The notes: a model not told the origin generated them from the letters alone. Positions 35,489 to 64,000 are shown, counted from the first letter of the stretch. The stretch is DNA of 64,000 nt from Candidatus Omnitrophota bacterium (GCA_028715345.1 JAQUSB010000007.1:2287-66286), one strand, 5' to 3'. Made by a program: numbers and translations.

Positions 35489-35505
35489 TATTCACTTCCT
35501 TCTCA

Positions 35506-38433: not shown

Positions 38434-38447
38434 GATTTAATACCCTG

Positions 38448-41086: not shown

Positions 41087-41100
41087 AGTTCCCCTCTATT

Positions 41101-42015: not shown

Positions 42016-42032
42016 AACGCACCGGTCTTTCT

Positions 42033-43217: not shown

Positions 43218-44068
43218 TTTACTATTTCCGTTCCTATTCCTTTGTCTGTGAATATTTCCAAAAGCAGCGCGTGCGGGATACCCGCGTTCAGGATGTGCGC
43301 TTTCTTGACCCCGCCCTTTGTAGCGTTTATACACGCCCTGGCTTTCGGTATCATGCCGGCGTCTATGGTTTTATTTTTTATCAGGCGCTCTACTTCCGCC
43401 GCCTTTATCGTATTGTATAAAGTCTTCGGATTATTCTTATCTTTCATTATCCCGTTAACGTTCGTAAGCAGGACAAATTTTTCCGCTTTCAGCGCTATCG
43501 CGAGCGAATACGCCACATCATCGGCGTTCACATTATATATATGCCCGTCCCGGCCGATGCCTAAAGGATATATCACCGGTATTATATTGTCCTCGATAAG
43601 CTGCTTCACTACCGTGGTATCGACGGAGGTCACCTCGCCCACGTACCCGAGGTCGTATTCACACCGGAGCTTCCGGACCTTTATCATGCCGTTCTCTTTA
43701 CCGCTCAACCCGAAAGCCTTCGTGCCCATGCTCTTCAATGTGCTCACTATCTTTTTATTGATAGCGCCGAGCGCTTTATCGATCATGTGAAGAGACTGGC
43801 TGTCGGTAACCCGCCTGCCCTGGATGAATTTGGGTTCTATGCCGGAACGCTTCATCATCTTCGATATATACGGCCCTCCGCCGTGGACTATTATCGGCCG
43901 CATCCCGGCGTAGTTCATGAATATAATGTCCTCGAGAATACCCGCCTCGATGCCGCTGGCTTCGACGGCAGCTCCGCCGTATTTTATGACTACGGTCTTT
44001 TCGAAAAATTTACGTATATAAGGCAGTGCCTCGATGAGCACGTCGCTCTTCCGTATCGCTTCCTTCAT
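43214..44068 (-). CDS. argB: acetylglutamate kinase
   Basis: Amino-acid kinase family (VIKYGG). Confidence 0.85.
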   Translation of the reverse strand: MKEAIRKSDVLIEALPYIRKFFEKTVVIKYGGAAVEASGIEAGILEDIIFMNYAGMRPIIVHGGGPYISKMMKRSGIEPKFIQGRRVTDSQSLHMIDKALGAINKKIVSTLKSMGTKAFGLSGKENGMIKVRKLRCEYDLGYVGEVTSVDTTVVKQLIEDNIIPVIYPLGIGRDGHIYNVNADDVAYSLAIALKAEKFVLLTNVNGIMKDKNNPKTLYNTIKAAEVERLIKNKTIDAGMIPKARACINATKGGVKKAHILNAGIPHALLLEIFTDKGIGTEIVK

Positions 44069-45289
44069 TTATGTGCTGTACTCCGAATTTATCGCGACGT
44101 ACTCTTTCGAGAGATCGCATGTCCAGGCCGTCGCCTTATATCTTCCGTTCTTCAGGTCTACGGCTATCTTAACATTATTACCTTTAAAGAATTTGCGCGC
44201 TTTCTCTTTATCGTAACTTTTGGCGATCGCGCCGTTAGACAAAGCTTTCATCGCGCCTAAGTATATATCGGTCTTGTCGGGATCGAAACTGACCCCCGCC
44301 GCGCCGCATGCGGCCGCCACCCTGCCCCAATTCGGGTCTTCCCCGAAGACGGCGCATTTCAAAAGGTTCGAAGCAGATATCTTCCGCGCCGCCAGCTTCG
44401 CATCGAGCAAAGACTTGGCGCCCCTGACCTCTATCTCGATGAATTTTGTAGCTCCCTCGCCGTCCCGCGCAAGCATCTTCGCAAGCTCGATCGAGAGGAA
44501 TTTTAAACCTTCCACGAATTTTTTATACTCCTGATTTTTCTTCGTTATCTTTTTATTCCCCGCCATACCGTTGGCAAGGACAAAACAAGTGTCATTTGTG
44601 CTCATATCGCCGTCGACCGAGACCATATTGAACGAATCCCCGATAGATTCGCTCAAGGCCTCTTCGAGCATCCTCTTCGATATGGCAGCATCGGTCGCGA
44701 TAAAACATAACAGAGTAGCGTGTTTTTCGGCCTTCATTACCGGGTAGATCATGCCCACACCCTTACAGGCGCCGCCGATCGTCACCACTGACGAGCCCAA
44801 CTTCACCTTTACCGCGAACTCTTTAGCGACGGTGTCGGTCGTCATTATCGTCTCGGCGAATGTCCTGCCGCCCGCCTTCGATAAGCCGTCCACAAGCGGC
44901 GCGATATTGTTTCTGATCTTCTTTATCGGCAAAAGCTCACCGATTATACCGGTGGAAGCCACGAGGACTTCGCGCCTGTCGAGCCACAGCTTCTTCGCCG
45001 CGCACTCCGTCATGGCTACGGCGATCGCGTCGCCTGCCTTACCGTTCGCGCAATTGGCGTTGCCGCTATTGGCGATGACGGCCTGGTGCATCTTATTCTT
45101 TATATGAAGTTTGCTCACCTTTACCGGCGATGCCGCGAAATTGTTCGTCGTGAAAGCGGCAGCGGCGACGCAAGGGACCTCGGAATACAGGAGCGCCAGG
45201 TCTTTATTGCCGGATTTTTTTATCCCGGCCTTTACGCCGTTGGCTACGAAACCTTTAGCCGTAGCTACTCCGCCTTTCACTATTATCAT
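44069..45289 (-). CDS. argJ: bifunctional glutamate N-acetyltransferase/amino-acid acetyltransferase
   Basis: ArgJ family, including the ATML-type self-cleavage region. Confidence 0.85.
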   Translation of the reverse strand: MIIVKGGVATAKGFVANGVKAGIKKSGNKDLALLYSEVPCVAAAAFTTNNFAASPVKVSKLHIKNKMHQAVIANSGNANCANGKAGDAIAVAMTECAAKKLWLDRREVLVASTGIIGELLPIKKIRNNIAPLVDGLSKAGGRTFAETIMTTDTVAKEFAVKVKLGSSVVTIGGACKGVGMIYPVMKAEKHATLLCFIATDAAISKRMLEEALSESIGDSFNMVSVDGDMSTNDTCFVLANGMAGNKKITKKNQEYKKFVEGLKFLSIELAKMLARDGEGATKFIEIEVRGAKSLLDAKLAARKISASNLLKCAVFGEDPNWGRVAAACGAAGVSFDPDKTDIYLGAMKALSNGAIAKSYDKEKARKFFKGNNVKIAVDLKNGRYKATAWTCDLSKEYVAINSEYST

Positions 45290-46302
45290 AAAAGCCCTTC
45301 CGTCTCGTCGAAACCGGCCATTATATTCATATTTTGTATTGCCTGTCCCGCCGCGCCTTTGGTCAGATTATCGATACACGAGATGACTATCAAAGTTTCA
45401 CCCGTTACCTTCAGGCCGATATCGCAGTAATTGGTGCAAACGACGTCTTTTATCTGCGGGAATTTACCCTCGTCCGAGATCCTGACGAACGGCTTTCCTT
45501 TATAGAAATCCTTATATATATCCAGAACGGCTTTAGTGTCGAGCTTCTTATTCAAACGCAAATATATCGTCGAGAGTATTCCGCGGTTCATCGGTATAAG
45601 GTGCGGGGTAAAAACTATATTGATCGCCCCGCCGGAAACCGCGGACAATATCTTATTTATCTCGGGTGAATGCTGGTGTTCGTTCACCTTATACGCCTTC
45701 AAATTCTCGTTCACTTCGCAGAAAGACAAAGCGCTGTCGGGTTTGCGCCCGGCGCCGCTCGTCCCGGATTTCGAATCCGCTATTATGTTCTTGGGGTCTA
45801 TGGCCTTTGCTTTAAGCGCAGGCGCAATGCCCAATATTACGCTCGTTGGGTAACAGCCGGGGTTGGCGATAAGTTTTGCCTTTTTTATATCGCTGTAATA
45901 AAGTTCCGGCAGGCCGTAAACTGCTTTGGAAAGATTCGCCTTATCTTTATGCTCCGCGCCGTACCACATCTTATAAACGTCCGGCGCCAGCCTGTAATCT
46001 GCGCTTATGTCTATGGCCGACTTTCCCGCCTTCATAAATACAGGGACGATATCCATCGCGGCTTTGTGCGGCAGGCCGAGAAAAACAAAGTCAACATTCT
46101 TAGCTATCGCTTCCGGGTCGATCTTTTTGCATACGAGGTCGATCCGGCCTTTGAACTCCGGGAATACCGCGGAAATAGGTTCATCTGTATCGGAAAAACG
46201 CGCGAGCTCGGTTATTTTAACGTCCTTGTGCCGTAAAAGTATCCGTATCGCTTCCTGGCCGGCATAACCTGTTGCGCCCAATATTCCAACTTTTATCATC
46301 AC
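45286..46302 (-). CDS. argC: N-acetyl-gamma-glutamyl-phosphate reductase
   Basis: GATGYAG Rossmann fold. Overlaps argJ by 4 nt. Confidence 0.85.
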   Translation of the reverse strand: MMIKVGILGATGYAGQEAIRILLRHKDVKITELARFSDTDEPISAVFPEFKGRIDLVCKKIDPEAIAKNVDFVFLGLPHKAAMDIVPVFMKAGKSAIDISADYRLAPDVYKMWYGAEHKDKANLSKAVYGLPELYYSDIKKAKLIANPGCYPTSVILGIAPALKAKAIDPKNIIADSKSGTSGAGRKPDSALSFCEVNENLKAYKVNEHQHSPEINKILSAVSGGAINIVFTPHLIPMNRGILSTIYLRLNKKLDTKAVLDIYKDFYKGKPFVRISDEGKFPQIKDVVCTNYCDIGLKVTGETLIVISCIDNLTKGAAGQAIQNMNIMAGFDETEGLL

Positions 46303-47380: not shown

Positions 47381-50300
47381 TTATGCCGCCGTCCAGAATT
47401 CGCGCATTATGAGCTTCAGGCGCTCTATTGCGCTCGCGGTCAATTCCGAAAGCAGTCTTATGGCGCTCTTCGAGCAGAACTCTATCCTGTCAATGGTGTC
47501 CTGCGCCGTCTCATTCTCTTTCTCGGGCAATCTTTGTAATAGAACGTTGGCATCGCCTTTGTAGCAGCCCTTGAGAATATTCCTGAAAAACATGCCGATC
47601 CACGGATTTTTTTCATCCGATTCGTACAAACGCGCGCAGATAGCCCGCATGAACAGGCTGGACTGATAAAACGTCTTTTCCGCAGATCTCATATTATTAT
47701 AGCCCTCGGGAAGTTCAAAACCGAGATCCCGGACTTCTTTAAAAAGGGCCGGTTCTTCTTTCACCAGGGATCTCACTATATCCTTCGAGCGCTCTCCCGT
47801 AATGACAATTATTCTTTTTACATGGTCTTCGGGTTTGGCGGAACGGAGAAATTTTCTAAGCCCCTCTTTATCCTGGAACGCCTTACAACCCACGATATCG
47901 TCTCTGCCGATCTTTTTCCTTATATCCCTTAATGCGTCGGCCATCGTTTCCGTAGTGCCTACCTCATCCTGGAGCACCAGCGCCTCCACCCTGTCCTGAT
48001 GGAAAATATTGATCGTCTGCCAGATGTTGAATACATCCTTACGGCTTAAGGTCATACTTCCGGGGCCAAGATGCCTGCCTATCCGCGCTTTCACGATCTC
48101 TTCAGCGCCTTCCTTTATTTCGGTAATGAGCGGATGGCTTTCCAGCGCCTTCATGGCAGCGTCTCTTCTCTGCCAGAATTCATCCGAGCCGATACCGGTA
48201 GAGGTTGTGCCTGCCGATGCCAGAACAAGTTCAGGCTCGTTCTGCTCAACCGCCGGCGGTTGCACTTTATCATCACCTGGCGTAGCCGGCTCAATGCCGT
48301 TCTGCGCTTCAAGGTTTTGAGACGATCCTTCATCTGTAGACGCCAGGTCTTCCACCGCCCCTGTTCCGACGAGATCAGCCGGCGGCATGTATCTGTCATC
48401 GTAGCCTGCGCCGAATATGTCATCGAGCCTCGTCCAGTCCAGCATCGGTTCCTCTGCCTCTTCCTGCGCTCTTTGATATAAACTTCTGACTATAAAGATC
48501 ATGAAATCTACCCGCGGAGCCGCATCTTCTTCCGTAAGATATACTGACCGGGCATAACACGTTATAAGCGCCTGCCTCGCTTCTATTTTTTCGGAATCGG
48601 ATGTCTGAGGGTTTGTAAGCACTTGCATTTTTTCCAAGAAGAGAGACCTATTGCTTTGTATATCATATACCATGAATATGCCAAAAAGACGCAGGGCAAC
48701 GTCTCTTACCGTAACATTGGATGACGGTAACGCATAAAATAGCCCCACCGTGTTTTCTTTAAGCCATCCCATAAAATCACTTAAAGTCATGTCAGCAGGA
48801 ATTTCTACATTATCTCGCATCGAAGCAACAAACTCTTCTTCCGGGCTAAGGATAATGTTCACAGGCTGTATATCGGCTTCACGCTGTCCGCCTAATACCC
48901 CAGCCGGGAATATTATTTCACCGTCATCCGTTACTGTCACTTTAAACGCATCGCCTGTCACATAATGCGGAGTGGTATTTTCCCCGATAGTTACATAATA
49001 TTCGCCTTCTGTCGGCGTCGGACGGACCGTTATACTTTCTACCGGCACCCCTTTATCTTTGGCAACGGCTTTTTTGATATTGTCAAAAGGTGCGCCAGCC
49101 TCCGCCTTTTTCGCGTCCCGGGCTGTAACAGCCATAGCCGCGATCGCCGCGCCTATTCCTGCGCCGTCTTTGGCCTCGAAGACTTCGAGCTTCTGGACAT
49201 AAATACCTCCGAATATATCGGCCAGAGCTTCTTTCATCATTCTGATATATCCAGGATAATTTAAAAGCGGCCCGTCCACCGCATATGCGTATTCGCCGGT
49301 CGGTTGATAAGTTCCTTCTCTCTGCATAACGATACCTGCGAATGTAGCGGCACCCAGCCGAGCGGATCTTGACATGATATTATGCGCAATGGTCCTGACT
49401 TCCTTAACATCGTCATCGGTCGGGTCCTGTATCCCCATATCCGTAAAGTATTTCTTCAAACCATCCATATTTCCGGCCAGCCATAACGCCTCGATCTCGC
49501 TCATATTCCTGGCAGTGAAACCTTTATAACTATCCTTCTCATAATCGTGATCAGTGAAGGTAGCGGGCAGAGCGCCGTTATGATTAGCAAACAAATTATT
49601 TGCGCGAACCTCTTTTTCGAGCATGAGCCCGAACAGAGGCCCTACATATTTGCCGGAAAGCCTCTTTTCTAAAGGATGGACACCCGGATTCGAGGAAAGC
49701 CTGTCCACTTCGGCATCCAACCTCATCGCCTCAAGCTTAGCGCTACCTACTTCCAGAAGATTAAACGCTCCGGATTCCAGATTGACCGAATTTCCGTTCT
49801 CGTCAAGCATATCCGTATTATGGCCTGTGGCGAATACGCCTCCGGCGATCGTTCTGGGATTCAAAAACATGCCGTAGAGCTTCACTGTTTTTGTATCATT
49901 ACAGATTTTGACGATCTTAATGTTGATCTTATCGGTCTGCAGGCCTGCTTTCGCCAGAGCTTCATTCATAAGCGCCGCGACATCCTGCCCCATTATCCCG
50001 TCGAAATTGTAGCCTTTGACATTACACTCCGGCGTAATGGCATTTTCGCTTGTTCCTACTTTTTTCGTAGCGAAAGAAAATGTGAAGCCGGTGCTTAAAT
50101 CCCCCGACAGATTATATTTATCTGCGAAAAATCTTATCTTTTCCGCGATAAAGTCAAAGAGCTGTTTCCCCGCGCTTGCGCGTATTTCCTCCGGCACAGC
50201 GAAAGTAAGCTCGTGCTTTTTTTCGAGCGTATGGTTACCTTTAAATTCGACAAGACCTACGCGGAAATTTGTCCCTCCCAGGTCTAAAAATAGGGTCTCG

Positions 50301-53300
50301 CCCTTCTCGTCGCCCGTTAGCCTTTCTGTCTCCGTAACTATATTGGAGAGCGACGACTGATTTGTGCCGCGGAGCATAACGTCTCCCCTGAAATTCATCG
50401 CGATCTGTTTCAATGTAGTTACAGCTATCGCGAAAATGTTCGGCTTTACTCCGCCGAAGTTCGCGCGGTTCTCCGTAACTAACGCGATAAGCTCTTCCGC
50501 GCTTTTTTCCGCCGATTTTCTATCCCCGTTTATGAAGATTATCTCAAGAAATCGATCTACTATCGCGTTGAAAGCTTCAGCCTTTACTTGTTCCGACGCA
50601 TCAAGCCTTACATACATGCTTAATGCTTCTACCAAAACTGCATCCGCATTAGCCTCCTCGCCTATAGGTTTATTCGTGGCTATGCAAACGGCTTGCCTGA
50701 TCTTTCTCTCCGCGCCCTCGCGCATTTCGGCAGTTTCTAATTCGGTTATCTCGCGATTAAGCCTTGCTATATCGGCCCCCAGCTTCTCTTTTTCGGCTTC
50801 CGAGATAGAGGGCTCATCTTTACGGCCTGTCTGTTTTCTTATAAGTTCGGCCCTTTGAGCTCTTAGCTGGCTTATCCTGGCGCCGAGCGTTTTGGCGGGT
50901 TCGGCAGGCGCGCGGACAGCGGCATCGTTCGCCGGGGCTTTATCCGATAACGCAGCATTAAATGCGGTGAGTTGTCCGGTCAATCCGTCATCGGTTAATG
51001 CTTTTCTCACGGCCGCTATATTCGCTTCCTCACCCGGCAATTCCGCTACTTTAATATCTTTCGCGGCGGCAACCGGGTCGATTTTTGCAAGCTCGATAAT
51101 ATCGACTATCGCCTTCCCTCCGCCCATAGGAGGCCGTTGAGTGCCGGTAAATTCGTCTTTAGACTTATTTATTAATTCCCACGCTCTGGATATTCCATCC
51201 GCATATAAGCCCACTTCACCTATCTGTAAAAAGAGGCATCTGGCGATCTTATCGGCCAACTTCTCATCCGTGTCGATACCGCCCTTTAGCCTCGCGGCAA
51301 ACGCTTCGCGCACTGCCTGATTCTGATGCAGACTGTCGATAACAGCTTTCTCTCTGTCACTGAGCAATGCATAATAGGAAGCGGGATGGAAATCGACGGT
51401 TTTATTTGCCCCTTTATTATCAACGACTACTCTGTAATCGGGATTGCCGTCCAAAGCTGCCAATACTTGCTCAGGTCTCCATATAGCGGGGTCGATGTAA
51501 ACAGCGTCGGCGCCATAACTGCGGGAATGATCACGTAGTTTCCCGAGCAGCCTCTTCCATATCTCGGGATGATCCCATTGCAATTTAAGCAGCATATTCA
51601 TGGTATGCCTGCCGGGAGCACCGTTAAGCTCGGCCAGATTAAATATATTATTAATACCCAGCGCGGCAAGATCGCGCTTTACCCATTGCTCGTGGATAGG
51701 TAACACGATCGGCCGTGAAAATGCACTACTCTGAGGTATCTGAAAAGTACCTGCACGCAGGGTCAATTCCGGCCCTATATCTACGGAAGAATAGTAAAAT
51801 GCGGTATGCACAACTCCTAACGGACCGCTCCGGTTGACGGCAACGTCATATCGACCCAAAGGAATTTCCCGGATCGCGATAGTAACGTTGTGACTGAAAC
51901 CACGCAAGGCATACCAGCGCGAAGTCTTGCTGAATTTGTCATCCGATACCGAAACAAGCCGCGCAAGTCTTATGAACGAACTGACATCCGGCCCATCCCA
52001 CTCGCCTTTTTCCTCAAGCGCTTGTAGTCTCGCCTTCCATTCGCCCGAGGCGGCGCTCATAGCTTCTTCTCTCATTGCAGGCGTCGAACCTATCCCGCTT
52101 CTTTCGAATATGTCGCGGATCAGATCCCTCACCCTGAACTTTTTTAACTCAGGATATGTAAAGTACCGGAGTGTTGTTTCGCTAAATAAAGCGTCGGGCC
52201 GATTCATCACTAATACCGAAGAACTGCTACTTAATTCCCATATCTTGGATCTCGCATAATCTTGGAATTCGACGTTGATACCTAAGCCGGCAAACCATCT
52301 GCGCAATGATCCAAGATCAAGCTTAACCTCTACTTGATCCGCGGCATGCTGCGCGTAAGCGGCAAGTTCTTCTGCTAACGCCTGCCTTTCGGACGCGATA
52401 CGCTCGGCCGCGTATACTAATCCGGGCAGCCAATCCATGTTTTCCGCGCCAATACGCACTAACCCGCAATCAACGCTATAATAAATACGCTTCCTGACCT
52501 CTTCCGATACTACGCTCCCGGCGTTCACCCTTAAAACTTTTATACCCTTGTCGCTGACGTTGGTGCAGATCTCAAATATCTGCTCACCATTTCTCATATA
52601 TGTCAGGACATCGCCCTCTTTGATAGCATTTGCATCCAAGGGGTATGTTCTGGAGATCGAAAATAAATCGACCAGTAATTTCGTTAATGACGCGAAATCA
52701 TCCCGTACATCTTTAATGCGGGGCCGCAATTTTTCGGGCGTTTCTTTTGCGGTAATATCCGGTAAGAGCGGTAATCCCTCTAGTTCCCTCCCGACCGTAA
52801 GCATAATCTGCGCCGCCGCGGGATTGTTTATTTCGGTCTCCGTAAGAGATTTTCTTTGCCGCCTCGTTCCTTCCGCCAGGGTTTTAATTTTAGCGTGAAA
52901 TTCTTTTCTTGCCGATACTAATTCAGCGGCGCTTCTAGCGATCTCAGATAACCTATTTACATTTTCGCCGCTTATATTTACAAGCTGCCAGTTGTCAAAA
53001 TCATGCCGCTCCGCGTCCATCGAAATAATGTCTTCCGCGGTAATTTGTAATATCTTCAGCCGCCCATCCTGATCGGCCGCAAGGCAAATGCAAAACTCCC
53101 GCTTTTCGACCCTGCCGTTGGTTAAAATATCTCCTGCCCTGATAATAGAGTTCTCCGGGATCGGCTGAGATCGCCCTGAATAGAAAAGTACCCGATATAA
53201 ATATCTGACAAGCGGATCCCGCCTTTCCAACATTTCGGCAACCCAGCTCTTTAATTCATCGGGATCCACACCGCTATATTCTTCATATGAATTCGGCAAA

Positions 53301-53779
53301 AACGCTAATCCCGACAATGAGTTACCGAGAGCCGCCGCTATGCCGGCTATATCTGAAGCCTGCGTTATCTGCTTCATCAGCGTATCAAATTCAGCCAATT
53401 CAGGACTGCCTTCCGCGTACTCGCTCCTGAACGCACGATGCTTACTGCCATCCCTGTCTGCGGCGGAAACAAGATATATGATCGCTTCCCTGGGCGTAGG
53501 CCGTTTGCGTTCGAAATCGAGCAAACGATGATCCCCGGATACGACAATGGAAAAAGTGTAGCGGGGATCGCCGTTTAAAGCAGCTATTATATTCTCGGCT
53601 CTGAATAAATCCGGGACAAAACGAATTGCATCAACTCCCCTGTCAATATTTAGCACACTCAATGTCCCGATCAAATGATCCCATACGAGAGGATGATTAA
53701 GTTCGATACCCATGAGAGCGACAATAGCATCCGACTGTCTGTCGGATAGGAATATATATGATCGATGCCTGCCACCCAA
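47381..53779 (-). CDS. downstream ORF of a frameshift-split giant gene (2,132 aa), with an embedded hexokinase-family domain
   Basis: Track ORF; its start in this frame is a TTG. LFLDLGGTNFRVGL at 50250..50290 ... GFTFSFATKK ... IVKICNDTKTV, with a C-terminal lobe down to about 49.1 kb. Second copy of the SFIRLARL..SDD.FSKTSRWYA module at about 51.25-51.94 kb. Confidence 0.75.
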   Translation of the reverse strand: MGGRHRSYIFLSDRQSDAIVALMGIELNHPLVWDHLIGTLSVLNIDRGVDAIRFVPDLFRAENIIAALNGDPRYTFSIVVSGDHRLLDFERKRPTPREAIIYLVSAADRDGSKHRAFRSEYAEGSPELAEFDTLMKQITQASDIAGIAAALGNSLSGLAFLPNSYEEYSGVDPDELKSWVAEMLERRDPLVRYLYRVLFYSGRSQPIPENSIIRAGDILTNGRVEKREFCICLAADQDGRLKILQITAEDIISMDAERHDFDNWQLVNISGENVNRLSEIARSAAELVSARKEFHAKIKTLAEGTRRQRKSLTETEINNPAAAQIMLTVGRELEGLPLLPDITAKETPEKLRPRIKDVRDDFASLTKLLVDLFSISRTYPLDANAIKEGDVLTYMRNGEQIFEICTNVSDKGIKVLRVNAGSVVSEEVRKRIYYSVDCGLVRIGAENMDWLPGLVYAAERIASERQALAEELAAYAQHAADQVEVKLDLGSLRRWFAGLGINVEFQDYARSKIWELSSSSSVLVMNRPDALFSETTLRYFTYPELKKFRVRDLIRDIFERSGIGSTPAMREEAMSAASGEWKARLQALEEKGEWDGPDVSSFIRLARLVSVSDDKFSKTSRWYALRGFSHNVTIAIREIPLGRYDVAVNRSGPLGVVHTAFYYSSVDIGPELTLRAGTFQIPQSSAFSRPIVLPIHEQWVKRDLAALGINNIFNLAELNGAPGRHTMNMLLKLQWDHPEIWKRLLGKLRDHSRSYGADAVYIDPAIWRPEQVLAALDGNPDYRVVVDNKGANKTVDFHPASYYALLSDREKAVIDSLHQNQAVREAFAARLKGGIDTDEKLADKIARCLFLQIGEVGLYADGISRAWELINKSKDEFTGTQRPPMGGGKAIVDIIELAKIDPVAAAKDIKVAELPGEEANIAAVRKALTDDGLTGQLTAFNAALSDKAPANDAAVRAPAEPAKTLGARISQLRAQRAELIRKQTGRKDEPSISEAEKEKLGADIARLNREITELETAEMREGAERKIRQAVCIATNKPIGEEANADAVLVEALSMYVRLDASEQVKAEAFNAIVDRFLEIIFINGDRKSAEKSAEELIALVTENRANFGGVKPNIFAIAVTTLKQIAMNFRGDVMLRGTNQSSLSNIVTETERLTGDEKGETLFLDLGGTNFRVGLVEFKGNHTLEKKHELTFAVPEEIRASAGKQLFDFIAEKIRFFADKYNLSGDLSTGFTFSFATKKVGTSENAITPECNVKGYNFDGIMGQDVAALMNEALAKAGLQTDKINIKIVKICNDTKTVKLYGMFLNPRTIAGGVFATGHNTDMLDENGNSVNLESGAFNLLEVGSAKLEAMRLDAEVDRLSSNPGVHPLEKRLSGKYVGPLFGLMLEKEVRANNLFANHNGALPATFTDHDYEKDSYKGFTARNMSEIEALWLAGNMDGLKKYFTDMGIQDPTDDDVKEVRTIAHNIMSRSARLGAATFAGIVMQREGTYQPTGEYAYAVDGPLLNYPGYIRMMKEALADIFGGIYVQKLEVFEAKDGAGIGAAIAAMAVTARDAKKAEAGAPFDNIKKAVAKDKGVPVESITVRPTPTEGEYYVTIGENTTPHYVTGDAFKVTVTDDGEIIFPAGVLGGQREADIQPVNIILSPEEEFVASMRDNVEIPADMTLSDFMGWLKENTVGLFYALPSSNVTVRDVALRLFGIFMVYDIQSNRSLFLEKMQVLTNPQTSDSEKIEARQALITCYARSVYLTEEDAAPRVDFMIFIVRSLYQRAQEEAEEPMLDWTRLDDIFGAGYDDRYMPPADLVGTGAVEDLASTDEGSSQNLEAQNGIEPATPGDDKVQPPAVEQNEPELVLASAGTTSTGIGSDEFWQRRDAAMKALESHPLITEIKEGAEEIVKARIGRHLGPGSMTLSRKDVFNIWQTINIFHQDRVEALVLQDEVGTTETMADALRDIRKKIGRDDIVGCKAFQDKEGLRKFLRSAKPEDHVKRIIVITGERSKDIVRSLVKEEPALFKEVRDLGFELPEGYNNMRSAEKTFYQSSLFMRAICARLYESDEKNPWIGMFFRNILKGCYKGDANVLLQRLPEKENETAQDTIDRIEFCSKSAIRLLSELTASAIERLKLIMREFWTAA
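49080..50290 (-). other. hexokinase-family (ASKHA) sugar-kinase domain embedded in the giant protein
   Basis: LDLGGTNFRV is the canonical hexokinase phosphate-1 motif. GFTFSF and a VNDT-like (ICNDT) motif follow in the right order. Confidence 0.6.
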
Positions 53780-56700
53780 AGATCCTGCGCAACCAATTGC
53801 TCACGCATAGATAAGGTAGAGTTCTCATTGAAATAATCTGTATCGGAAAGTTGCGAAGCTCCTGCCTGGGCTTTGGCTAGTTCAGGTTCGATAGAATCTG
53901 CTTCGGCGTAAAATACAAAATCATACGGTCTTGCTACGCTATAACGCCCTACGCAAACCTGCTTATTATTGGTGACAGGTATATTTCTCACCGATATAAT
54001 TACGCAGCTATCGATACCGTCGAAAGCATACCAGCGCGAGGTCTTACTGAATGTATCGTCGGACACAGCTGTAAGCCGTGCAAGCCTTATAAAGGAAATG
54101 ACGTCTGCCGCTTCCCAGCGAGGCTTATTCTCAAGCTCAGCCAATTGCCTATGCGCCGACTCTGCCGCGGATACTTTATCACCTCTACGAACGTCTTCGG
54201 TCGTCTGCACTTCAGCTAAAAGATCCCGTGCTTCCTGTGTCAATTCTGACAAATGGTCAAGTTTGTCACCGCTTACATGTACCACTTTCGTTTCCCTGGG
54301 GCCATCGTAATTATGACGTTCTGCACCCATCGGAATGAGTTTATACTGACCGACGGCGACCACGCTTATATGCCCGCCGCTGACCTCGGTGCAAATGTGA
54401 AACTCCGGGCCTTCGTCCATATTTATTTCCAGAATATCTCCCTTATTGATAGGAGTTCCGCTATTAAGAGGAGATGATTTCGAAGACGAGAGTAATTTAT
54501 ATACTGAGCTTGTCAGCGAGACTCGCTCACCCTGGTCGTTGTCAGGAAAACGTGATAAGCCCTCTAATGCCTGCCCGAGGCCTATCGTCATCCGGGTTAT
54601 ATCCAGGTCTTCGCGAGCGGTTTCATCTATATTGTAATGCTTTAAAACATCTTTCCTGCTCACGCCTACGGTTTTCCACGGCGGAGTCGGAAGGTCGGTG
54701 TTTTTATCATCTTTTAAATATGTGTGCTTATTATTGCCGCTTATTCCGTAAACAGTCTTCTCTTCTTCGGTGCGTATCCAGTAATGGGATATCGCGCCGG
54801 CGTCGATCCAACGGGGCTCGATGATAACATTATCTATCTTAATGGCAAAATGGCGGACGCCGTTTACCTTTGCCAGGCGGTCGCGTTCCTCTAATATGGC
54901 TCTGAAATTCGCCAAAATAAACTCCAGGGTATCTTTATGATGATCGATGACCGCAGGGGTAATTCTTATCTCATCGATATTGTTAAGTTTATGCTTCGCC
55001 GCCCAAATCAGCTCGGACGGAAGCACGATATTTTCATTATTTCTATTGCGAATGCTGTAAGTACCGCTGCCTATTCTTGTGGCTATTTCGTAACCAGATT
55101 CCGACCTCATCGCAGCGGTTTTCAATGAAACATAGATAATACCCCATGCCTGATATCCCGGCTCGGCCATAAATTTACCCAGATTATCCGTCACTGTCTT
55201 GACATCACGCTCAGGGACACGGCGCAATATTTCGCTTCCGAAATTCGCCCCGCTCGCGCGGACGGAAGATATTAAAAGCATCGCCTGGTTAACCGGATCT
55301 GCTACTCCTAATCCCTGTAGACATTCGGCGATAAGCACTGCGGCATGGGCTTTCTCAGCGTCTTCTTTAGCAGTGACTAACCGTGCAATGCTGTTTAGAA
55401 GAACGGCGTCGAGTCTGTCCCCTCTCCACCCTGCATTCATGGCCCATTCGTCGACACCCTCTTTTATCCTATTCTGTCTCTGGGCAGTCAAACCGCTCCA
55501 ATAGCCGGCCTGATCCTCGTCGGCAACTGCCGTAACGGCACTTTCGACTGGCTTGCCTGTCCCGGCGAATCCGAAATCATTGGCAGTTCCAGATATATAC
55601 TTTAAAACCAAATCTACCGTTACTTTCTCGGACTTATTCGGGTCGAGCCCCAGCTCACGCAGACGGCCTTTTATAAGCAGCATGGCGGCATTTTTATCGT
55701 CATCTGTCTTGGCCTTTGTCAGCCTCGCTATATTATCCAAAAGGGTTGCGTCATACAGCCATGCTTTCTTTATATCACGGCACTCTTTAAGACTGGCCAC
55801 TATTTTATCATGCGCCCGTTTAGATAAAGACATCCAATATTTAAAGTCGTTCTGCCGTGCTCTGGGGCGTATACGCTCGTGCAGAATTTCTTCGAACATT
55901 TCAATCCGTTTATATAAAGGTATCCAATATTTAAAGTCGCTCTGCTGTGCTCTGATGCGCATACGCTCGCGTATAATTCTGTCGAGCATTTCAAGTTGGT
56001 CAATAGAGAAAACTCTCGGCCAGTTGGCAGATTCTCTAGTCATAGGTTCGAGGTAGGTTAAAAAAGTGCGAAGAAGTATGGCGCCGCTGGGATTTTCAAC
56101 AACCAATCTTTCTATTGCTCTTCTATCTTCCGCTCTGAGCGCTTCGCCCATCCTTTTCTCAAAGTCTGCCGTAAAAGCAGTGCCTTTTTTCGAAGCGCCT
56201 GATTCCACACTAGCAGTCAGTTTGGCTGGATCATCCACTCTAAATAACAAGCTGCCGTTAGGGCCCTTTTCGCTAAGCTCTCTTATTACCCTGTATCTTT
56301 TTTCCGGATGGAAGGCCAGATCCAGAAGATCCCTTCGCGCAGTCTGGAGAGCGGACTTCCTGTTTTCCGCCGGAGCATCGAATCTAAATTCCGGATGCTC
56401 TTTCACAAACTTCGCATATCCTTTATCGAGATAATCAGCTACGCTGAAAGGCTCGTTTTGTAATTCGGGTGTATGCGCAAGTACTATAAGCGCTGCCTCC
56501 GCGCTTTTGCCGGGGCGCGTACGCGGCTTGCCTGCCGACGGCTCGTCCAATATGATGCGCGTATGGCCCAATAATTTGAGCCGAAACTGGGTGTATCGCC
56601 ACTTTAAAACTATATATTCCGCATATGCGCGCGTTTTCGCTATTAATTTAAATGTCCTCTTTCCTTTATATATTCTTTCCCATGCCGCTAAAAACCTCCC

Positions 56701-58557
56701 CGCTTCCGCAAAAACATCGCGTTCTCCTTCGTCATAGGCCGCTTCCTTAATAATATTAATAATTGCCTTATCCGTATAATCAGCGATCAGCTTTTTATGC
56801 TCTCTCACGTAATCCGCTAATCTGGGCAATGCTTCTCTATACGCCGGCGAGTACCTGTCTACCATTTTATAAGCGGTTGCCAAATATTTTTTTATGAAAT
56901 TCACATAAGGATCTGAAGCGTTAGAACCGTCTCTTTGTAATGTATCGCGACTTCTCTCAAGCATTAAATACTCTAGGGAGCCTTCCGGTATCCGCGTTTT
57001 AAGCGCCTTATCCAGATCTTCTATAAGCGCCTCTACTTCAGAACTTCGTTTTTCGACAGATGGCTGAGCTGCTTTTATTCTATCAATATCCGCCCCCGAC
57101 GCAGGTCTGACCACGCCGGTCGCAATAGACTGATATGTAAAATTATGATAGCGATTGGTCAGATCTTCTCTCACACGAATCGTATCGCCGTGTTTTTCGG
57201 ACACATACCCTATGCTTTCCCTGCCACCTTGTGTAATAATTACGGGCGAGCCAGTTTTGATGTTCTTGAATACAGATTCCGGCGATTGCTGGCGTCTGCT
57301 CTTGGTCGGGCTTTTGCCGCCGTCGTTTTTCGCGGGAAAACCGAAATTCGCCGCCGGGAAAGAAAGGTCCGATATAATAGTATCGGCCAGGAAACGCGCC
57401 GATATCGGACCTAAATTTGTTAATTCATGTAAACGGCTGGCCACAAGCCCCATTGCCTGCTCTTTTCTATCATACTTCTCAGCTTTTATTCTTTGCGCTA
57501 TATAATTCAGAAGGACGGCATCGCGGCTTAATTGCAAACCATCGACATTATAATCTCTGCCGAGAAGGAGCGGTCTTTGCATATTTGCAAGATATGCCAG
57601 TATCCTATCCCGCGACTGCCGGGACAATTCCGGCCAATAGTCATGCCCGGCTACTACAGCCGACATCCCGGTGGTATCTTGAGCGGCGGCTTTAGCGCGT
57701 ACTGCGCGCTCTCCATAATACTTGTCATTCATTAAAAGCGCTAATTGCTTGGCTTTCTGCCGTAAAGCGGGGTCACCCTTAATGCTTTTAAACTCATCGT
57801 TAAGCTTCAGTTTCGCGGCTTCATCGTTTTCGAATATCCAGTCGATCCTTCCTGCCAATATGTTGTTGTTATAACGCACCATATTGGAATTAGCGTATGA
57901 GTGTAAAAACCACATCCATACGGCGTCACTGAGCCAGTCTTCCTGCGGGTCATCAGCGGCAACTCTCTTTGTTACGCGTTTCAATAATTCAGACGCGGCG
58001 GAAGTTGAGCCCTGTCCTTGTCTGGGCGAATTCTTAGGGTCTTTAAAATCGATCATTATATCGTTTTTCGCAAGACCATCGAACATAGCCACGAAATTCT
58101 CATCGAAGATCACCGTGACCTTACCGCCTGCCTTTGACCTCTTGAATATTGGAAGCACACCCGGCTCCGCATCGGACACATCTCTACGGAGGTCGCCTTT
58201 TATCACTTCTACATTCGATATTCCGGAATCGGCAAGCCTGGATTTAGCTAATGTGAGGAAAGACGGCATTTCCCATCCGGGAGGAGTCTTATCTGTGGTT
58301 GCACCCGGCCTAATCTCGATACCTTCGATAGGCACAAGCCCAGTGCTTGGAATAAAATTTATCGGAAGGACCGCATCAAAATCGACACGAACATGGCTGG
58401 CATTTGCGAGAAGATAATCGGCCATATCGACCATGGCCGCCTGGGTAGGCTCATTTCTCGACCCGGGCATAGGGCTCAGGCCGTAAGCGACGCTGTTAAA
58501 GATAAAGAGTATAGCGACAACTAAAGATATTATCCTGTTCGTCATAGTAATTTTCAT
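53671..58557 (-). CDS. upstream ORF of the frameshift-split giant gene (1,628 aa); signal peptide; repeat-module protein
   Basis: MKITMTNRIISLVVAILFIFNSVAYG signal peptide. The C-terminus (SFIRLARLTAVSDDTFSKTSRWYA ... MLLSLSW) is the first half of a ~230-aa module whose second half (NHPLVWDHLIGTL ... AALNGDPRY) is read in the overlapping frame of 47381..53779. Confidence 0.75.
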   Translation of the reverse strand: MKITMTNRIISLVVAILFIFNSVAYGLSPMPGSRNEPTQAAMVDMADYLLANASHVRVDFDAVLPINFIPSTGLVPIEGIEIRPGATTDKTPPGWEMPSFLTLAKSRLADSGISNVEVIKGDLRRDVSDAEPGVLPIFKRSKAGGKVTVIFDENFVAMFDGLAKNDIMIDFKDPKNSPRQGQGSTSAASELLKRVTKRVAADDPQEDWLSDAVWMWFLHSYANSNMVRYNNNILAGRIDWIFENDEAAKLKLNDEFKSIKGDPALRQKAKQLALLMNDKYYGERAVRAKAAAQDTTGMSAVVAGHDYWPELSRQSRDRILAYLANMQRPLLLGRDYNVDGLQLSRDAVLLNYIAQRIKAEKYDRKEQAMGLVASRLHELTNLGPISARFLADTIISDLSFPAANFGFPAKNDGGKSPTKSRRQQSPESVFKNIKTGSPVIITQGGRESIGYVSEKHGDTIRVREDLTNRYHNFTYQSIATGVVRPASGADIDRIKAAQPSVEKRSSEVEALIEDLDKALKTRIPEGSLEYLMLERSRDTLQRDGSNASDPYVNFIKKYLATAYKMVDRYSPAYREALPRLADYVREHKKLIADYTDKAIINIIKEAAYDEGERDVFAEAGRFLAAWERIYKGKRTFKLIAKTRAYAEYIVLKWRYTQFRLKLLGHTRIILDEPSAGKPRTRPGKSAEAALIVLAHTPELQNEPFSVADYLDKGYAKFVKEHPEFRFDAPAENRKSALQTARRDLLDLAFHPEKRYRVIRELSEKGPNGSLLFRVDDPAKLTASVESGASKKGTAFTADFEKRMGEALRAEDRRAIERLVVENPSGAILLRTFLTYLEPMTRESANWPRVFSIDQLEMLDRIIRERMRIRAQQSDFKYWIPLYKRIEMFEEILHERIRPRARQNDFKYWMSLSKRAHDKIVASLKECRDIKKAWLYDATLLDNIARLTKAKTDDDKNAAMLLIKGRLRELGLDPNKSEKVTVDLVLKYISGTANDFGFAGTGKPVESAVTAVADEDQAGYWSGLTAQRQNRIKEGVDEWAMNAGWRGDRLDAVLLNSIARLVTAKEDAEKAHAAVLIAECLQGLGVADPVNQAMLLISSVRASGANFGSEILRRVPERDVKTVTDNLGKFMAEPGYQAWGIIYVSLKTAAMRSESGYEIATRIGSGTYSIRNRNNENIVLPSELIWAAKHKLNNIDEIRITPAVIDHHKDTLEFILANFRAILEERDRLAKVNGVRHFAIKIDNVIIEPRWIDAGAISHYWIRTEEEKTVYGISGNNKHTYLKDDKNTDLPTPPWKTVGVSRKDVLKHYNIDETAREDLDITRMTIGLGQALEGLSRFPDNDQGERVSLTSSVYKLLSSSKSSPLNSGTPINKGDILEINMDEGPEFHICTEVSGGHISVVAVGQYKLIPMGAERHNYDGPRETKVVHVSGDKLDHLSELTQEARDLLAEVQTTEDVRRGDKVSAAESAHRQLAELENKPRWEAADVISFIRLARLTAVSDDTFSKTSRWYAFDGIDSCVIISVRNIPVTNNKQVCVGRYSVARPYDFVFYAEADSIEPELAKAQAGASQLSDTDYFNENSTLSMREQLVAQDLWVAGIDHIYSYPTDSRMLLSLSWVSNLIILSYGII

Positions 58558-59594: not shown

Positions 59595-60332
59595 TTAGTA
59601 CGTTACCCGCACCATACACAGGCCCTTTGCGGGCATTGTAGGGCCCGAAAACCGCCTGTCCTGTTTTGCTATGATCTCTTTTATTGCCGATGCCTTAATT
59701 TTGCCCCGGCCTATCTCAACGAGCGTACCTACGATGCTCCGGGCCATGTTGTACAAAAACCCGTTGGCCTCTATGTAAATATACACTAAATCCCCGTCTT
59801 TTTCAATTTTAATGTCCTTTATCGTCCTGACGGAATTCTTCTTTTCGCCGTCGACTGCTTTGAATGCCCTGAAGTCATGCCTGCCTACTAAATATTTCGC
59901 GGCTTTCTTCATCAGCCCTATATTGAGCTTGTAGAAACACTTCGCGGCGAAGTGGCGGATCAAAGGGTCCATATAATCGTTATTCATTATCGTGTAGCGG
60001 TAAAGCTTGGACTTGGCGCTCTTCTGAGAGTTGAATTTGGGGCGGGCTTCCTCTATATATATGATAGCGATGTCCCTGGGAAGCATGCTATTGAGCGCAA
60101 GCTGCAGTTTCTCAAGCGGTATCTTCGACTTTGTCCTGAAATTCGCCACCTGCGCTTCGGCGTGGACGCCTGCGTCCGTCCTGCCGGAGCCGATGAGGTT
60201 AACACGCTCGCCGGTTATTCTTTTAATTATACCCTGGATAACGTCCTGTATGGCAAGGCCGTTCTTCTGCGATTGCCATCCGGCGTAGCGCGTCCCATCG
60301 TAGCGTATTGTGAGCTTAATATTTCGCATCAA
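59595..60332 (-). CDS. truA: tRNA pseudouridine(38-40) synthase
   Basis: GSGRTDAGVHA catalytic Asp motif. Confidence 0.85.
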   Translation of the reverse strand: MMRNIKLTIRYDGTRYAGWQSQKNGLAIQDVIQGIIKRITGERVNLIGSGRTDAGVHAEAQVANFRTKSKIPLEKLQLALNSMLPRDIAIIYIEEARPKFNSQKSAKSKLYRYTIMNNDYMDPLIRHFAAKCFYKLNIGLMKKAAKYLVGRHDFRAFKAVDGEKKNSVRTIKDIKIEKDGDLVYIYIEANGFLYNMARSIVGTLVEIGRGKIKASAIKEIIAKQDRRFSGPTMPAKGLCMVRVTY

Positions 60333-60335
60333 ATT

Positions 60336-61334
60336 TTACAGCAGTTCGGCGATCTGGATGGCGTTGAGAGCGGCGCCTTTACGGATATTGTCGGCAACGA
60401 CCCACATCGAAAGGCCGTTCTTTATCGACTCGTCCTGCCTGACCCTGCCGACTAAAGTCGCGTCTTTGCCTTCGGCGTCTATCGGCATCGGGTAAACCTT
60501 ATTGTGCGGATCGTCTACAAGTTTTACGCCCGGCGCTTTCAGGAGAAGCTCTCTGGCCTCATTCGCGCTTATATATTCTTTAGTCTCGATATTGACGCTC
60601 TCCGAATGCGCGTAAAATACCGGCACCCTGACGCAGGTGGCATTCACCCGGATGGAATCATCGCCCATGATCTTTCTTGTCTCATGGACCATCTTCATCT
60701 CTTCCTTGGTATAATCGTTGTCCATGAACACGTCTATCTGCGGGAGCAGGTTAAAAGCTATCTGGTATGGAAATTCCGCGGGTTTAAAGGGTTTATTGGC
60801 AAGCCATGCTGCGGTCTGTTCACGAAGTTCATTGACCTTCTTCTGTCCGCCGCCCGAAACCGACTGGAAAGTGGTAACGACTATCCTCTTTATCTTTGCC
60901 TTTTTGTGTATAGGTGCGAGCGCCACGACCATTTGTATGGTCGAGCAATTAGGGTTCGCGATTATGCCTTTGTGCTTCTTTATATCCTGAGGGTTGACCT
61001 CGGGGACGACGAGCGGCACTTCTTTATCCATCCTGAAGGCGCTCGAATTGTCGATGCAGACCGCGCCCGCCTTTACCGCGCTCGGCAGAAATTCGAGAGA
61101 GCGCGAAGCGCCCGCCGACGCGAGCACTATATCGACGCCGTCGAAAGAGTTGTGGGTCAAAATCTCGACAGGATATTCTTTGCCCATAAATTTTAAGGCT
61201 TTGCCCTTCGAGCGTTCCGACGCCAATAGCTTGAGGTTTTTTATAGGAAATTTGCGCTCTTCGAGTATCCTCAAAAAAGAGTTTCCTACGGCGCCTGTCG
61301 CGCCCATCACCGCTACGTTGTAGTTTTTCGACAT
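60336..61334 (-). CDS. asd: aspartate-semialdehyde dehydrogenase
   Basis: VAVMGATGAVG Rossmann fold; active-site Cys region. Confidence 0.85.
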   Translation of the reverse strand: MSKNYNVAVMGATGAVGNSFLRILEERKFPIKNLKLLASERSKGKALKFMGKEYPVEILTHNSFDGVDIVLASAGASRSLEFLPSAVKAGAVCIDNSSAFRMDKEVPLVVPEVNPQDIKKHKGIIANPNCSTIQMVVALAPIHKKAKIKRIVVTTFQSVSGGGQKKVNELREQTAAWLANKPFKPAEFPYQIAFNLLPQIDVFMDNDYTKEEMKMVHETRKIMGDDSIRVNATCVRVPVFYAHSESVNIETKEYISANEARELLLKAPGVKLVDDPHNKVYPMPIDAEGKDATLVGRVRQDESIKNGLSMWVVADNIRKGAALNAIQIAELL

Positions 61335-61336
61335 TT

Positions 61337-62398
61337 TTACAGATTCTCCACTACGAGATCCCCGACCTCTTCGGTCGAGTACCCCATCTTCCCCGCCGCA
61401 AGGCTTTTTAGTTTGCCGGTCGAGACTTTTATGACAGACGCCTCTACGGCCTTTGCCGCTTTCTCTTCGCCCAAATTATCGAGCATCATTCCCGCGGCGC
61501 ATATCGCGGCGAGAGGATTGATCACGTGCTTACCTGTGTACTTAGGGGCGGATCCGCCTATAGGCTCGAACATCGAAACGCCTTCGGGGTTGATATTACC
61601 GCCGGCCGCGATGCCCATCCCGCCCTGGATCATTGCGCCCAGGTCGGTGATGATGTCGCCGAAAAGATTATCGGTCACGATGACGTCGAACCACTCCGGA
61701 TTTTTCACGAACCACATCGTCGTCGCGTCTACGTGCGCGTAATCGGTCTGGACGTCCGGGTAATCTTTTTTAACTTCGTCAAATGTCCTCTGCCACAGGT
61801 CCCAGGCGTAAGTGAGAACATTTGTCTTCCCGCAAAGTGTCAGCTTTTTTCTCTTATTGCGTTTTTGCGCGAGCTTGAACGCGTAACGGATACAGCGCTC
61901 GACGCCTTTACGCGTATTGTAAGAGATCTGTATCGCGACCTCGTCTTTGGTGCCCTTCTTCTGGAATTCTCCCATGCCCTTGTAAAGCCCTTCGGAATTC
62001 TCGCGCACGACGACGAAATCGATGTCTTCCGGTTTTTTATCTTTCAACGGGCAGAAGGCGGAACTGTATAATTTCACAGGCCTTAAATTAATATACTGGT
62101 CGAGGCCGAATCTGGTTTTGAGCAAAATACCCTGTTCAAGTATGCCCGGCTTCACGTCGGGGTGGCCTATCGCCCCTAAAAATATCGCGTCGAATTTTTT
62201 AAGCTCGGCGAGGTCTTTGTCGTCGATCGTCTTACCCGTCTTTAAGTATCTCGCGCCGCCGTAATCGAACATCTCCGTCGTATAATTAAATCCGAATTTC
62301 TTCGACGCGGCTTTTAGGACCTTCAATCCCTCGGCCACTACTTCCGGCCCTGTCCCGTCTCCGCCGATAACCGCTATCTTGTAATTTTTTGCAGCCAT
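61337..62398 (-). CDS. leuB: 3-isopropylmalate dehydrogenase
   Basis: IAVIGGDGTGPEV; IDH/IMDH family. Adjacent to leuDC. Confidence 0.8.
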   Translation of the reverse strand: MAAKNYKIAVIGGDGTGPEVVAEGLKVLKAASKKFGFNYTTEMFDYGGARYLKTGKTIDDKDLAELKKFDAIFLGAIGHPDVKPGILEQGILLKTRFGLDQYINLRPVKLYSSAFCPLKDKKPEDIDFVVVRENSEGLYKGMGEFQKKGTKDEVAIQISYNTRKGVERCIRYAFKLAQKRNKRKKLTLCGKTNVLTYAWDLWQRTFDEVKKDYPDVQTDYAHVDATTMWFVKNPEWFDVIVTDNLFGDIITDLGAMIQGGMGIAAGGNINPEGVSMFEPIGGSAPKYTGKHVINPLAAICAAGMMLDNLGEEKAAKAVEASVIKVSTGKLKSLAAGKMGYSTEEVGDLVVENL

Positions 62399-62399
62399 T

Positions 62400-62894
62400 T
62401 TACTTTTTCCCTTTTCTCTTTAACGACTCCATAAGCCCGCCCGATGAAAATATCTTCTGCATGAACGGCGGATATTTCTCTATTTTATAACTCTCTTTTC
62501 TGGTCAAATTTTTTATGACGCCCGCTTTCGTGTCGACCAGAACAAGGTCTTTAGCCCTTATGCGCTCCGCAGCCTCTTTCGACTCTATTATAGGAAGGGC
62601 GGTATTTATACTGTTGCGGAAAAATATCCTGGCGAAACTTTCGGCTATTACGCACGAGATACCCGCTGCCTTTATCGCTATGGGCGCGTGCTCTCTCGAC
62701 GAGCCGCAGCCGAAATTTCTTCCGCCTACCATTATGTCGCCGGGCTTCACCTTTTTCATGAAATCTTTATCTATATGTTCCATGCAATGGCTCGCGAGCT
62801 CTTTTTTATCGGTAGTATTGAGATATTTCGCGGCGATTATGTCGTCTGTATTTATGTCCGTGCCGAATTTATGCGCGTGCCCTTTATATGCCAT
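62400..62894 (-). CDS. leuD: 3-isopropylmalate dehydratase small subunit
   Basis: 164 aa. Aconitase swivel domain. Confidence 0.85.
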   Translation of the reverse strand: MAYKGHAHKFGTDINTDDIIAAKYLNTTDKKELASHCMEHIDKDFMKKVKPGDIMVGGRNFGCGSSREHAPIAIKAAGISCVIAESFARIFFRNSINTALPIIESKEAAERIRAKDLVLVDTKAGVIKNLTRKESYKIEKYPPFMQKIFSSGGLMESLKRKGKK

Positions 62895-62895
62895 A

Positions 62896-64000
62896 TTACA
62901 TCACCTCTCCCGGATGCGTGATCTTGCCGGTGACGGCTGTCGCCGCGGCCACGGCCGGGTTCGACAGGTAAACGCCGCTATTCGGGTGGCCCATCCGCCC
63001 CGTGAAATTCCTGTTCGTCGTCGCTATCGCGACCTCTCCCTCGGCGAGGATACCCATATGCCCGCCTAAGCACGGCCCGCAGGTAGGCGTCGAGAATACG
63101 CCTCCGGCATCGACGAATATCTTTGCCAGCCCTTCGTTCACGCATTCCAAATATATCTTCTGGGTCGCCGGTATCACTATTAAACGGACGCCCGCTTTCA
63201 CCTTTTTGCCGCGCAGGACTTTCGCGGCCGATCTCATGTCGGAGATCCTGCCGTTCGTGCAGGAGCCTATCACGACCTGGTCTACCGCGACGTTCTTTAA
63301 TTTACTTACGGGCTTTGTGTTGCTCGGCAGGTTCGGACATGATACGACAGGCTCTTTTATTTTGCGCACATCGTATTCTTTAACGGCTGCGTACTTCGCG
63401 TCCTTATCGCTTGAATAAATTTTGCCCAAACCGGCGCGCGGCTTATTCTTTATCGCCCTTACATACTGCGCCGTTATCCTGTCGGGCGCTATGATACCGT
63501 TCTTACCGCCGGCCTCTATCGCCATGTTACACATGCTAAGACGATCGTCCATCGGCAGGTTTTCTATCGTCTCACCGCAGAATTCCATCGCCATATACCG
63601 GGCGCCGTCGACGCCGATATCGCCTATTGTGTGGAGGATCAGGTCCTTACCGCCGACCCATTTATTCAGGCGGCCGTAATATACGAACTTCATCGATTCC
63701 GGGACTTTAAGCCAGCATTCGCCCGTGACCATCGCCGCCGCGAGATCGGTAGAGCCTACGCCCGACGAGAAAGCACCGAGCGCGCCGTATGTGCAGGTAT
63801 GCGAATCCGCGCCTATCACGAGGTCGCCCGGCAGGACAAGCCCCATCTCCGGCAGTAACGCGTGCTCTATGCCCATCCGCCCTATCTCGAAATAATTTTT
63901 AACATCGTATTTCTTCGCGAAGCCGGCGAGCACTTTGCACTGATTGGCGCTCTTCATGTCCTTCGCCGGCGCGAAATGGTCGGGCACCAGCACGACCTTC
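62896..64000 (-). CDS. leuC: 3-isopropylmalate dehydratase large subunit (5' end beyond window)
   Basis: Aconitase-family Cys ligands (CTNGR, GSCTNG-like). The frame stays open upstream of the track's GTG start, to the right window edge. Confidence 0.8.

Follow-up and report, generated by a model that had tools for sequence, protein, structure and literature searches.

The stretch of DNA analysed here (64,000 nucleotides from Candidatus Omnitrophota bacterium, GCA_028715345.1, JAQUSB010000007.1:2287-66286; hereafter the window) carries two long, overlapping open reading frames (ORFs) on its minus strand, lying in different frames. An ORF scan of the window recovered both where a preliminary description of this DNA had placed them, ORF A at 53671..58557 and ORF B at 47381..53779, and with the overlap of 109 nt given there, which is counted from the first TTG of ORF B. 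ORF A, the upstream half, starts with an ATG and encodes 1,628 aa identical to the annotated protein P0002. ORF B, the downstream half, encodes 2,132 aa when read from the TTG (53779), and its frame is already open from 53800. The NCBI annotation (PGAP) starts ORF B at the ATG 53713..53711, which leaves 2,110 aa (47381..53713, minus strand; protein P0001) and an overlap with ORF A of 43 nt. In the protein database P0001 and P0002 are separate hypothetical proteins, labeled "MAG: Candidatus Omnitrophica bacterium" (MAG, metagenome-assembled genome), on a 67-kb contig.

Read from the sequence, the frame of ORF B is −1 relative to that of ORF A. The ORF A frame has 1,639 open codons and the ORF B frame 2,139, and both are open together over 53674..53800. 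A conceptual fused protein of 3,725 aa, F, was built by placing a −1 shift directly after a Trp codon in this interval; residue numbers that begin with F refer to it. Its length agrees with the roughly 3,700 codons estimated in the preliminary description. With one base put back at the junction, the whole gene would occupy 47381..58557 (minus strand) and number 3,725 codons; this extent is based on the fused translation and on a 3,385-aa positional orthologue described below.

A module divided by the frame change

BLASTP comparison of ORF A with ORF B uncovered a module of about 230 aa, M1, that is cut by the frame change. In copy 1 (53510..54186, minus strand, F1458-1683, broken at 53710) the first two-thirds of the module end ORF A and the last third opens ORF B. 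Copy 2 (51386..52072, minus strand, F2163-2391) is intact and lies further down ORF B. Residues 1458-1616 of ORF A match residues 577-742 of ORF B with 39% identity (E=5e-24), and the piece of copy 1 encoded in ORF B is recognisable by itself, F1618-1683 aligning with the last part of the intact copy (F2326-2391, E=5e-11). That the adjoining ends of the two ORFs jointly rebuild a module of this size, present intact further down ORF B, had been claimed from inspection, and both matches bear this out.

In the fused protein the alignment of the two M1 copies is uninterrupted across the junction (F1576-1682 against F2280-2390, E=5e-15), and chunks of F that span residue 1616 match the second copy (E=2e-20 and 5e-15). 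Over their full length the two copies share 40% identity. Alignment of the module copies had been proposed as a check; in the resulting three-row alignment the end of ORF A and the beginning of ORF B meet at the same column of the intact copy. Resemblance to M1 is found in frame A only upstream of 53710 and in frame B only downstream of it. Neither the last 12 residues of ORF A nor the first 22 residues of ORF B, counted from the TTG, have a match in M1, and the last 12 codons of ORF A (VSNLIILSYGII*) are out-of-frame read-through.

The alignment narrows the frame break to 53699..53711 (minus strand), between TGG 53712..53710, the Trp codon of frame A, and AAT 53698..53696, the Asn of "NHPLVW" in frame B. 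The preliminary description had put the slip in about 53690..53712, an interval that includes this one. Between the two codons M1 copy 1 has 11 nt and copy 2 has none. The break consists of one absent base or, equivalently, two extra bases within 53699..53711. One added base gives copy 1 a four-residue insert, W-GIEL-N. The GGG at 53711..53709 is the only homopolymer of at least 3 nt in 53730..53690, and changing it to GGGG restores ...SLSW-GIEL-NHPLVW.... The exact base is something we infer: most simply and most economically, the missing one would have belonged to this run. The ATG of frame B at 53713..53711 is created automatically by the codon pair TCA-TGG.

A gene family upstream of rplM

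Sequence searches with the module-bearing region gave almost nothing. A word-indexed search of 5.8 billion clustered proteins with the fused junction region returned only P0001 and P0002 themselves. An exhaustive HMMER search of 1.84 billion representatives with residues 1-1070 of ORF B found only ORF A (through M1) and P0025, a 4,973-aa Bacteroidota-type adhesin that was hit in 8 repeats; this weak match (E=3.7e-7) was taken as compositional and not as homology. Back-translated scans of GTDB species genomes and JGI metagenome contigs with the fused protein detected no relatives. Since the databases searched contained no relative of the module region apart from the two ORFs themselves, the search was anchored on the conserved downstream neighbour, rplM.

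The closest rplM loci all belong to Omnitrophota MAGs. At four Omnitrophota loci the gene immediately upstream of rplM ends with a match to the last ~250 aa of ORF B, and a fifth locus with the same arrangement is found on a JGI contig (L035). Overall, the C-terminal domain of the window gene is 30-62% identical to the ends of the rplM-upstream genes in five other Omnitrophota contigs.

One of these loci, on a 710-kb contig (L004, refetched further upstream as L036), carries a positional orthologue. It is a single ORF of 3,385 aa (L036 674..10831) with the same flanks as in the window, in the order HAD hydrolase (62% identical), giant gene, rplM (RplM 78%), and it has a strong Shine-Dalgarno (SD) sequence, the ribosome-binding site AGGAGG. 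Over its N-terminal ~280 aa it corresponds to ORF A (E=7e-15; F133-281 against orthologue residues 81-263), and the first ~330 aligned residues are 33% identical to F. The leader MK…F[LI]FN..AYGLSP is common to the orthologue and ORF A, and a further segment of the orthologue matches ORF A 673-744 (E=3e-5). The last 280 aa match ORF B with 36% identity (E=7e-39); the orthologue ends LKLIMKEFWTAA and ORF B ends LKLIMREFWTAA. The orthologue contains no Pfam or NCBIfam domain and has internal hydrophobic segments. Comparison with orthologues had been proposed as a way to see whether the gene is continuous elsewhere, and in this contig it is, with an N-terminus that corresponds to ORF A and a C-terminus that corresponds to ORF B.

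The comparison reveals a small, uncharacterised family of long proteins in Omnitrophota, whose genes keep one and the same chromosomal position. In the literature on giant Omnitrophota genes, the sole topic searched, no description of a family between the HAD hydrolase and rplM was found. Its members have conserved N- and C-terminal domains and highly variable interiors, and the gene is fast-evolving.

A partial orthologue (L010 3..2219) has a glucosamine-6-phosphate isomerase/6-phosphogluconolactonase-like domain (PF01182, E=2e-6) where the window gene has a hexokinase, and it seems that sugar-phosphate enzyme domains can be interchanged between the conserved ends. By housekeeping genes the closest locus is L001 (631..1344), with RplM 93%, RpsI 95%, ArgC 89% and ArgJ 86% identical, but the giant-gene C-terminal domain is only 34% identical there. 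The contig of this locus (L001/L037) reaches just 1.3 kb into the giant gene. The L035 locus (3..779) is more distant, with RplM at 68%, but in the C-terminal domain of the giant gene it reaches 62% identity to window 47384..48226. The divergence of the giant gene is thus out of step with that of its neighbours, which suggests allele exchange or very uneven evolution at the locus.

Recoding, separate genes or a lost base

Both frames would be joined during translation if the junction were a site of programmed −1 ribosomal frameshifting or of some other kind of recoding. The shift needed is −1, the usual direction of programmed frameshifts, and both frames are long and intact; in its direction and its two long overlapping frames the locus resembles the −1 sites of dnaX and of insertion sequence (IS) element transposases. 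It lacks the signals of such sites. In a formal scan of 53830..53660, frame A contained no slippery heptamer (X XXY YYZ) anywhere in the doubly open interval; in the slip interval of the preliminary description, none had been visible by eye either. No downstream RNA structure beyond chance was detected: the fold of 53730..53600 has −27.5 kcal/mol, whereas shuffled sequences average −31.9 kcal/mol (z=+1.37). No SD-like stimulator was found upstream of the break. By codon-anticodon rules the break codons UGG GUA are unable to re-pair in the −1 frame, and a run of 3 nt is far too short for transcriptional slippage. The sole full-length orthologue is in one frame, so the frameshift is not conserved. 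Programmed recoding at the junction is not supported, and we regard it as highly improbable. One further contig, L002, had been considered as a second frameshifted orthologue and was dropped; its apparent frame change coincides with N-runs and is therefore uninformative.

ORFs A and B are very probably the two parts of one gene, some 3,725 codons long, in which a single base has been lost. The preliminary description had likewise seen a single gene whose frame slips by one base, either through an authentic frameshift or pseudogenisation or through an indel of the assembly; the M1 paralogy, the continuous orthologue and the lack of recoding signals and of a ribosome-binding site for ORF B all agree with it. 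The locus resembles ordinary frameshift-disrupted genes, that is, pseudogenes and indel errors in draft or metagenome assemblies. Like them it has neighbouring ORFs that share a strand but not a frame, homology that runs past the boundary along one reference, a break at a short homopolymer and no recoding signals. Nothing substantive sets it apart from them; what is unusual is the size of the gene and a continuity reference that is partly an internal paralogous module.

Several observations weigh against one broken gene. There is only one full-length orthologue, and it has no recognisable M1 and M2 modules; continuity therefore holds for the gene as a whole and not for the exact homologous position. 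The 20 intact conserved neighbours and the other, ~11-kb giant ORF of the window indicate an assembly that is not generally prone to indels, which makes an artefact less automatic as the cause of the break, and no second assembly of the organism was found that could corroborate the junction sequence. In addition, an ATG (53713..53711) lies exactly at the break, and two genes are called by the NCBI pipeline. The sequence would remain compatible with a translation of ORF B that is independent or re-initiated.

The ATG and the annotation also speak for two genuinely separate genes, an ancestral giant gene that is now a stable two-gene operon. ORF B would then start at ATG 53713, or by re-initiation before the ORF A stop, and the two M1 halves might re-associate. 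The ORF A stop is 40 nt past the ATG, in reach of termination-reinitiation, and ORF B is wholly intact. However, an SD-like aaaaggaaaa precedes the ATG of ORF A, purine-rich SD-like motifs precede most of the neighbouring genes too, and no such motif is found before ATG 53713 or TTG 53779. ORF B thus shows no apparent sign of an efficient start of its own. The ATG itself is an automatic by-product of TCA-TGG, the split falls inside a module whose paralogous copy is uninterrupted, ORF A ends with 12 out-of-frame residues, and the sole full-length orthologue is continuous. Two separate genes are therefore an unlikely explanation.

Within the interpretation as one gene broken by a lost base, the loss may lie in the organism or in the consensus sequence. 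In the case of an assembly or sequencing artefact, the DNA of the organism would have one more base (for example GGGG) and the gene would be intact in vivo; this is a serious candidate, rated somewhat below even. The break falls on the one homopolymer in the vicinity of the junction. The halves are otherwise flawless: 1,639 and 2,139 codons are open, and the hexokinase has kept its motifs. Also, one MAG contig is the sole source of the sequence: in an exact look-up in public assemblies neither P0001 nor P0002 was on record, and no second assembly was present in the protein database or among the GTDB genomes and JGI contigs. On the other hand, 3 nt is short for a homopolymer error and makes a weak hotspot. 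Each of the 20 conserved neighbouring genes examined fits its Pfam profile over the full length, and together with the unbroken ~11-kb ORF this indicates a low assembly indel rate, below roughly 1 per 50 kb. Another kind of assembly error, repeat collapse, was rejected because the M1 copies share no DNA-level repeat, which also makes a chimeric join between them unlikely.

Since ORF B stays open over 2,139 codons and has kept its hexokinase motifs, the break is either recent or not real. If real it would have to be very recent, because the 6.4 kb of downstream frame are undecayed. A real recent mutation or population variant and a consensus error divide the probability roughly evenly, with the real variant slightly favoured. 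In the former case the protein would end after 1,616 native residues, and the half with the hexokinase would be untranslated or poorly translated.

In the proposed course of events, a single base lost within M1 copy 1 would have split a giant gene into ORF A and ORF B; nothing at the break would direct ribosomes across it, and the downstream half would have no efficient start to fall back on. The product of the unbroken gene would be a fast-evolving modular protein with a signal or anchor segment, three old repeat families, an embedded hexokinase domain and a conserved C-terminal domain. For annotation, this means that the two "hypothetical proteins" should be merged into a single 3,725-aa gene or pseudogene, and that the site is not to be counted as a recoding event. 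The finding opens no long-standing question.

There is also a small chance that the break is real and part of how the locus behaves. In one version the gene would be a hypervariable, laterally exchanged cassette, with conserved ends, swappable enzyme cargo and a divergence discordant with that of its neighbours, and indels at short runs would switch it off or shorten it. In the other it would be a naturally split giant protein, of which both halves would be made and would reassemble through the split M1 module.

Protein architecture and genomic surroundings

The fused protein has a single N-terminal hydrophobic segment of its kind (residues 9-27; 58477..58533, minus strand), detected in a hydropathy scan. 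Positive charges precede it, the conserved AYGLSP follows it, and it is kept in the orthologue. This suggests a signal peptide or an N-in membrane anchor, a topology that we infer from these features. The segment is part of a conserved N-terminal domain (residues 1-281; 57715..58557, minus strand) defined by the match to and alignment with the orthologue. At the other end lies the conserved C-terminal domain (F3445-3725; 47384..48226, minus strand), which closes with the ORF B terminus given above. It is predicted to be α/β and then helical in a low-confidence model; the AlphaFold2 models were poor, with a predicted local distance difference test score (pLDDT) of 47 for the C-terminal domain and 44 for M1. 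Pfam and NCBIfam searches of ORF A gave nothing, and comparison of ORF A with PDB sequences gave nothing significant. In ORF B, Pfam detected only a hexokinase domain and NCBIfam nothing.

The hexokinase domain (PF00349 and PF03727) lies at 49133..50434 (minus strand, F2709-3140). Its Pfam E-values are 3.7e-32 and 3.4e-30, and its scores of 112.2 and 105.6 bits are far above the gathering cut-offs of 24.3 and 24. The best match of solved structure is human HK2 (E=1e-68). The alignment with HK2 keeps LDLGGTNFRV, GFTFSF, NDT, the E of NLESGAF, EKRLSGKY, VDGP and DGAGIGAA, which we take, from general knowledge of hexokinases, to be the catalytic and substrate-binding motifs. As in other members of the family, the full two-lobe domain is present, with nucleotide- and glucose-binding motifs kept. 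It differs in that it makes up only ~12% of a 3,725-aa protein, has ~30% identity to characterised enzymes and, going by the N-terminal signal, may be exported; its activity is predicted. Any function past that of a hexokinase-bearing exported or anchored scaffold would be speculation.

Two other Omnitrophota proteins, P0003 and P0006, contain hexokinase domains 53-69% identical to that of ORF B within other architectures. They were rejected as relatives of the gene, as the hexokinase domain is all they have in common with it and a profile comparison of the C-terminal domain was negative. P0003, a partial protein of 1,240 aa, joins a hexokinase domain 53% identical to that of ORF B to a Glu/Leu/Phe/Val dehydrogenase domain (PF00208). 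This fusion is further evidence for hexokinase domains being shuffled among long Omnitrophota proteins.

Giant genes of Omnitrophota have been described by West-Roberts et al. (bioRxiv 10.1101/2023.11.21.568195), and the giant proteins of the phylum have since been divided into "multi-enzyme metabolic" and repeat classes (bioRxiv 10.64898/2026.06.07.730766). The latter preprint describes long Omnitrophota proteins as sequence-unique, signal- or transmembrane (TM)-bearing and repeat-rich, with tiled sugar-metabolism enzymes, and includes a giant with 9 copies of the hexokinase domain PF03727; the surveys' threshold for a giant is at least 10,000 aa (bioRxiv 10.64898/2026.06.07.730766). The protein described here shares with these giants its Omnitrophota origin, an N-terminal signal or TM segment, its sequence uniqueness, mostly "dark" sequence around an embedded sugar-metabolism enzyme domain, and repeats that are old at the DNA level. 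At 3,725 aa, however, it is well below the cut-off, scaffold Pfam domains such as dockerin or TSP3 are absent from it, and it belongs to a small family defined by its conserved N- and C-terminal domains and by its fixed position between the HAD hydrolase and rplM. As a frameshift, then, the locus is ordinary; as a gene, it is a smaller new member of the long multi-domain Omnitrophota proteins. To the long multi-enzyme proteins lately described from this phylum, which is uncultured and possibly host-dependent, it adds a smaller example.

Apart from M1, the gene contains two more repeat families. A second module common to both halves had been noted in the preliminary description as a pair. The sharing holds, but the copies number three: residues 1319-1448 of ORF A match residues 150-296 and 331-505 of ORF B in BLASTP (E=3e-11 and 1e-6). 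The copies of this module, M2, lie on the minus strand at 54214..54603 (F1319-1448; GDILEINMDEGPEFHICTEVSGG), 52913..53353 (F1736-1882) and 52286..52813 (F1916-2091; EGDVLTYMRNGEQIFEICTNVSDKG). Self-comparison also uncovered M3, which is confined to ORF A and likewise has copies on the minus strand at 57337..57639 (F307-407; E=1e-9 to the second copy), 55561..55839 (F907-999) and 55237..55503 (F1019-1107). The repeat order in F is M3…M3-M3…M2-M1-M2-M2-M1. None of the three modules is visible as a DNA-level repeat, the M1 copies included, and all three are diverged, old internal repeats. The only notable DNA-level repeat in the gene is a tandem duplication of 89/90 nt in ORF A (55816..55994, 83% identical), which encodes two copies of ~30 aa, …RAQQSDFKYWIPLYKR… and …RARQNDFKYWMSLSKR….

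The giant gene is surrounded by housekeeping biosynthetic genes at 33087..46302 and 59595..63993, all on the minus strand, with names read from their Pfam matches. Upstream of it are leuC-like and leuB-like genes, asd and truA. Downstream, rplM-rpsI are followed by argC, argJ, argB, argD, OTCase, argG and argH, and after argH come lysA, dapF, dapA and dapB. The other giant ORF of the window (3..10973, minus strand) has no similarity to the gene at 47381..58557 and no Pfam domain. It consists of at least 3,657 codons, unbroken over ~11 kb, and runs off the left end of the window. The G+C content of this region is 0.39-0.46, compared with ~0.50 elsewhere.

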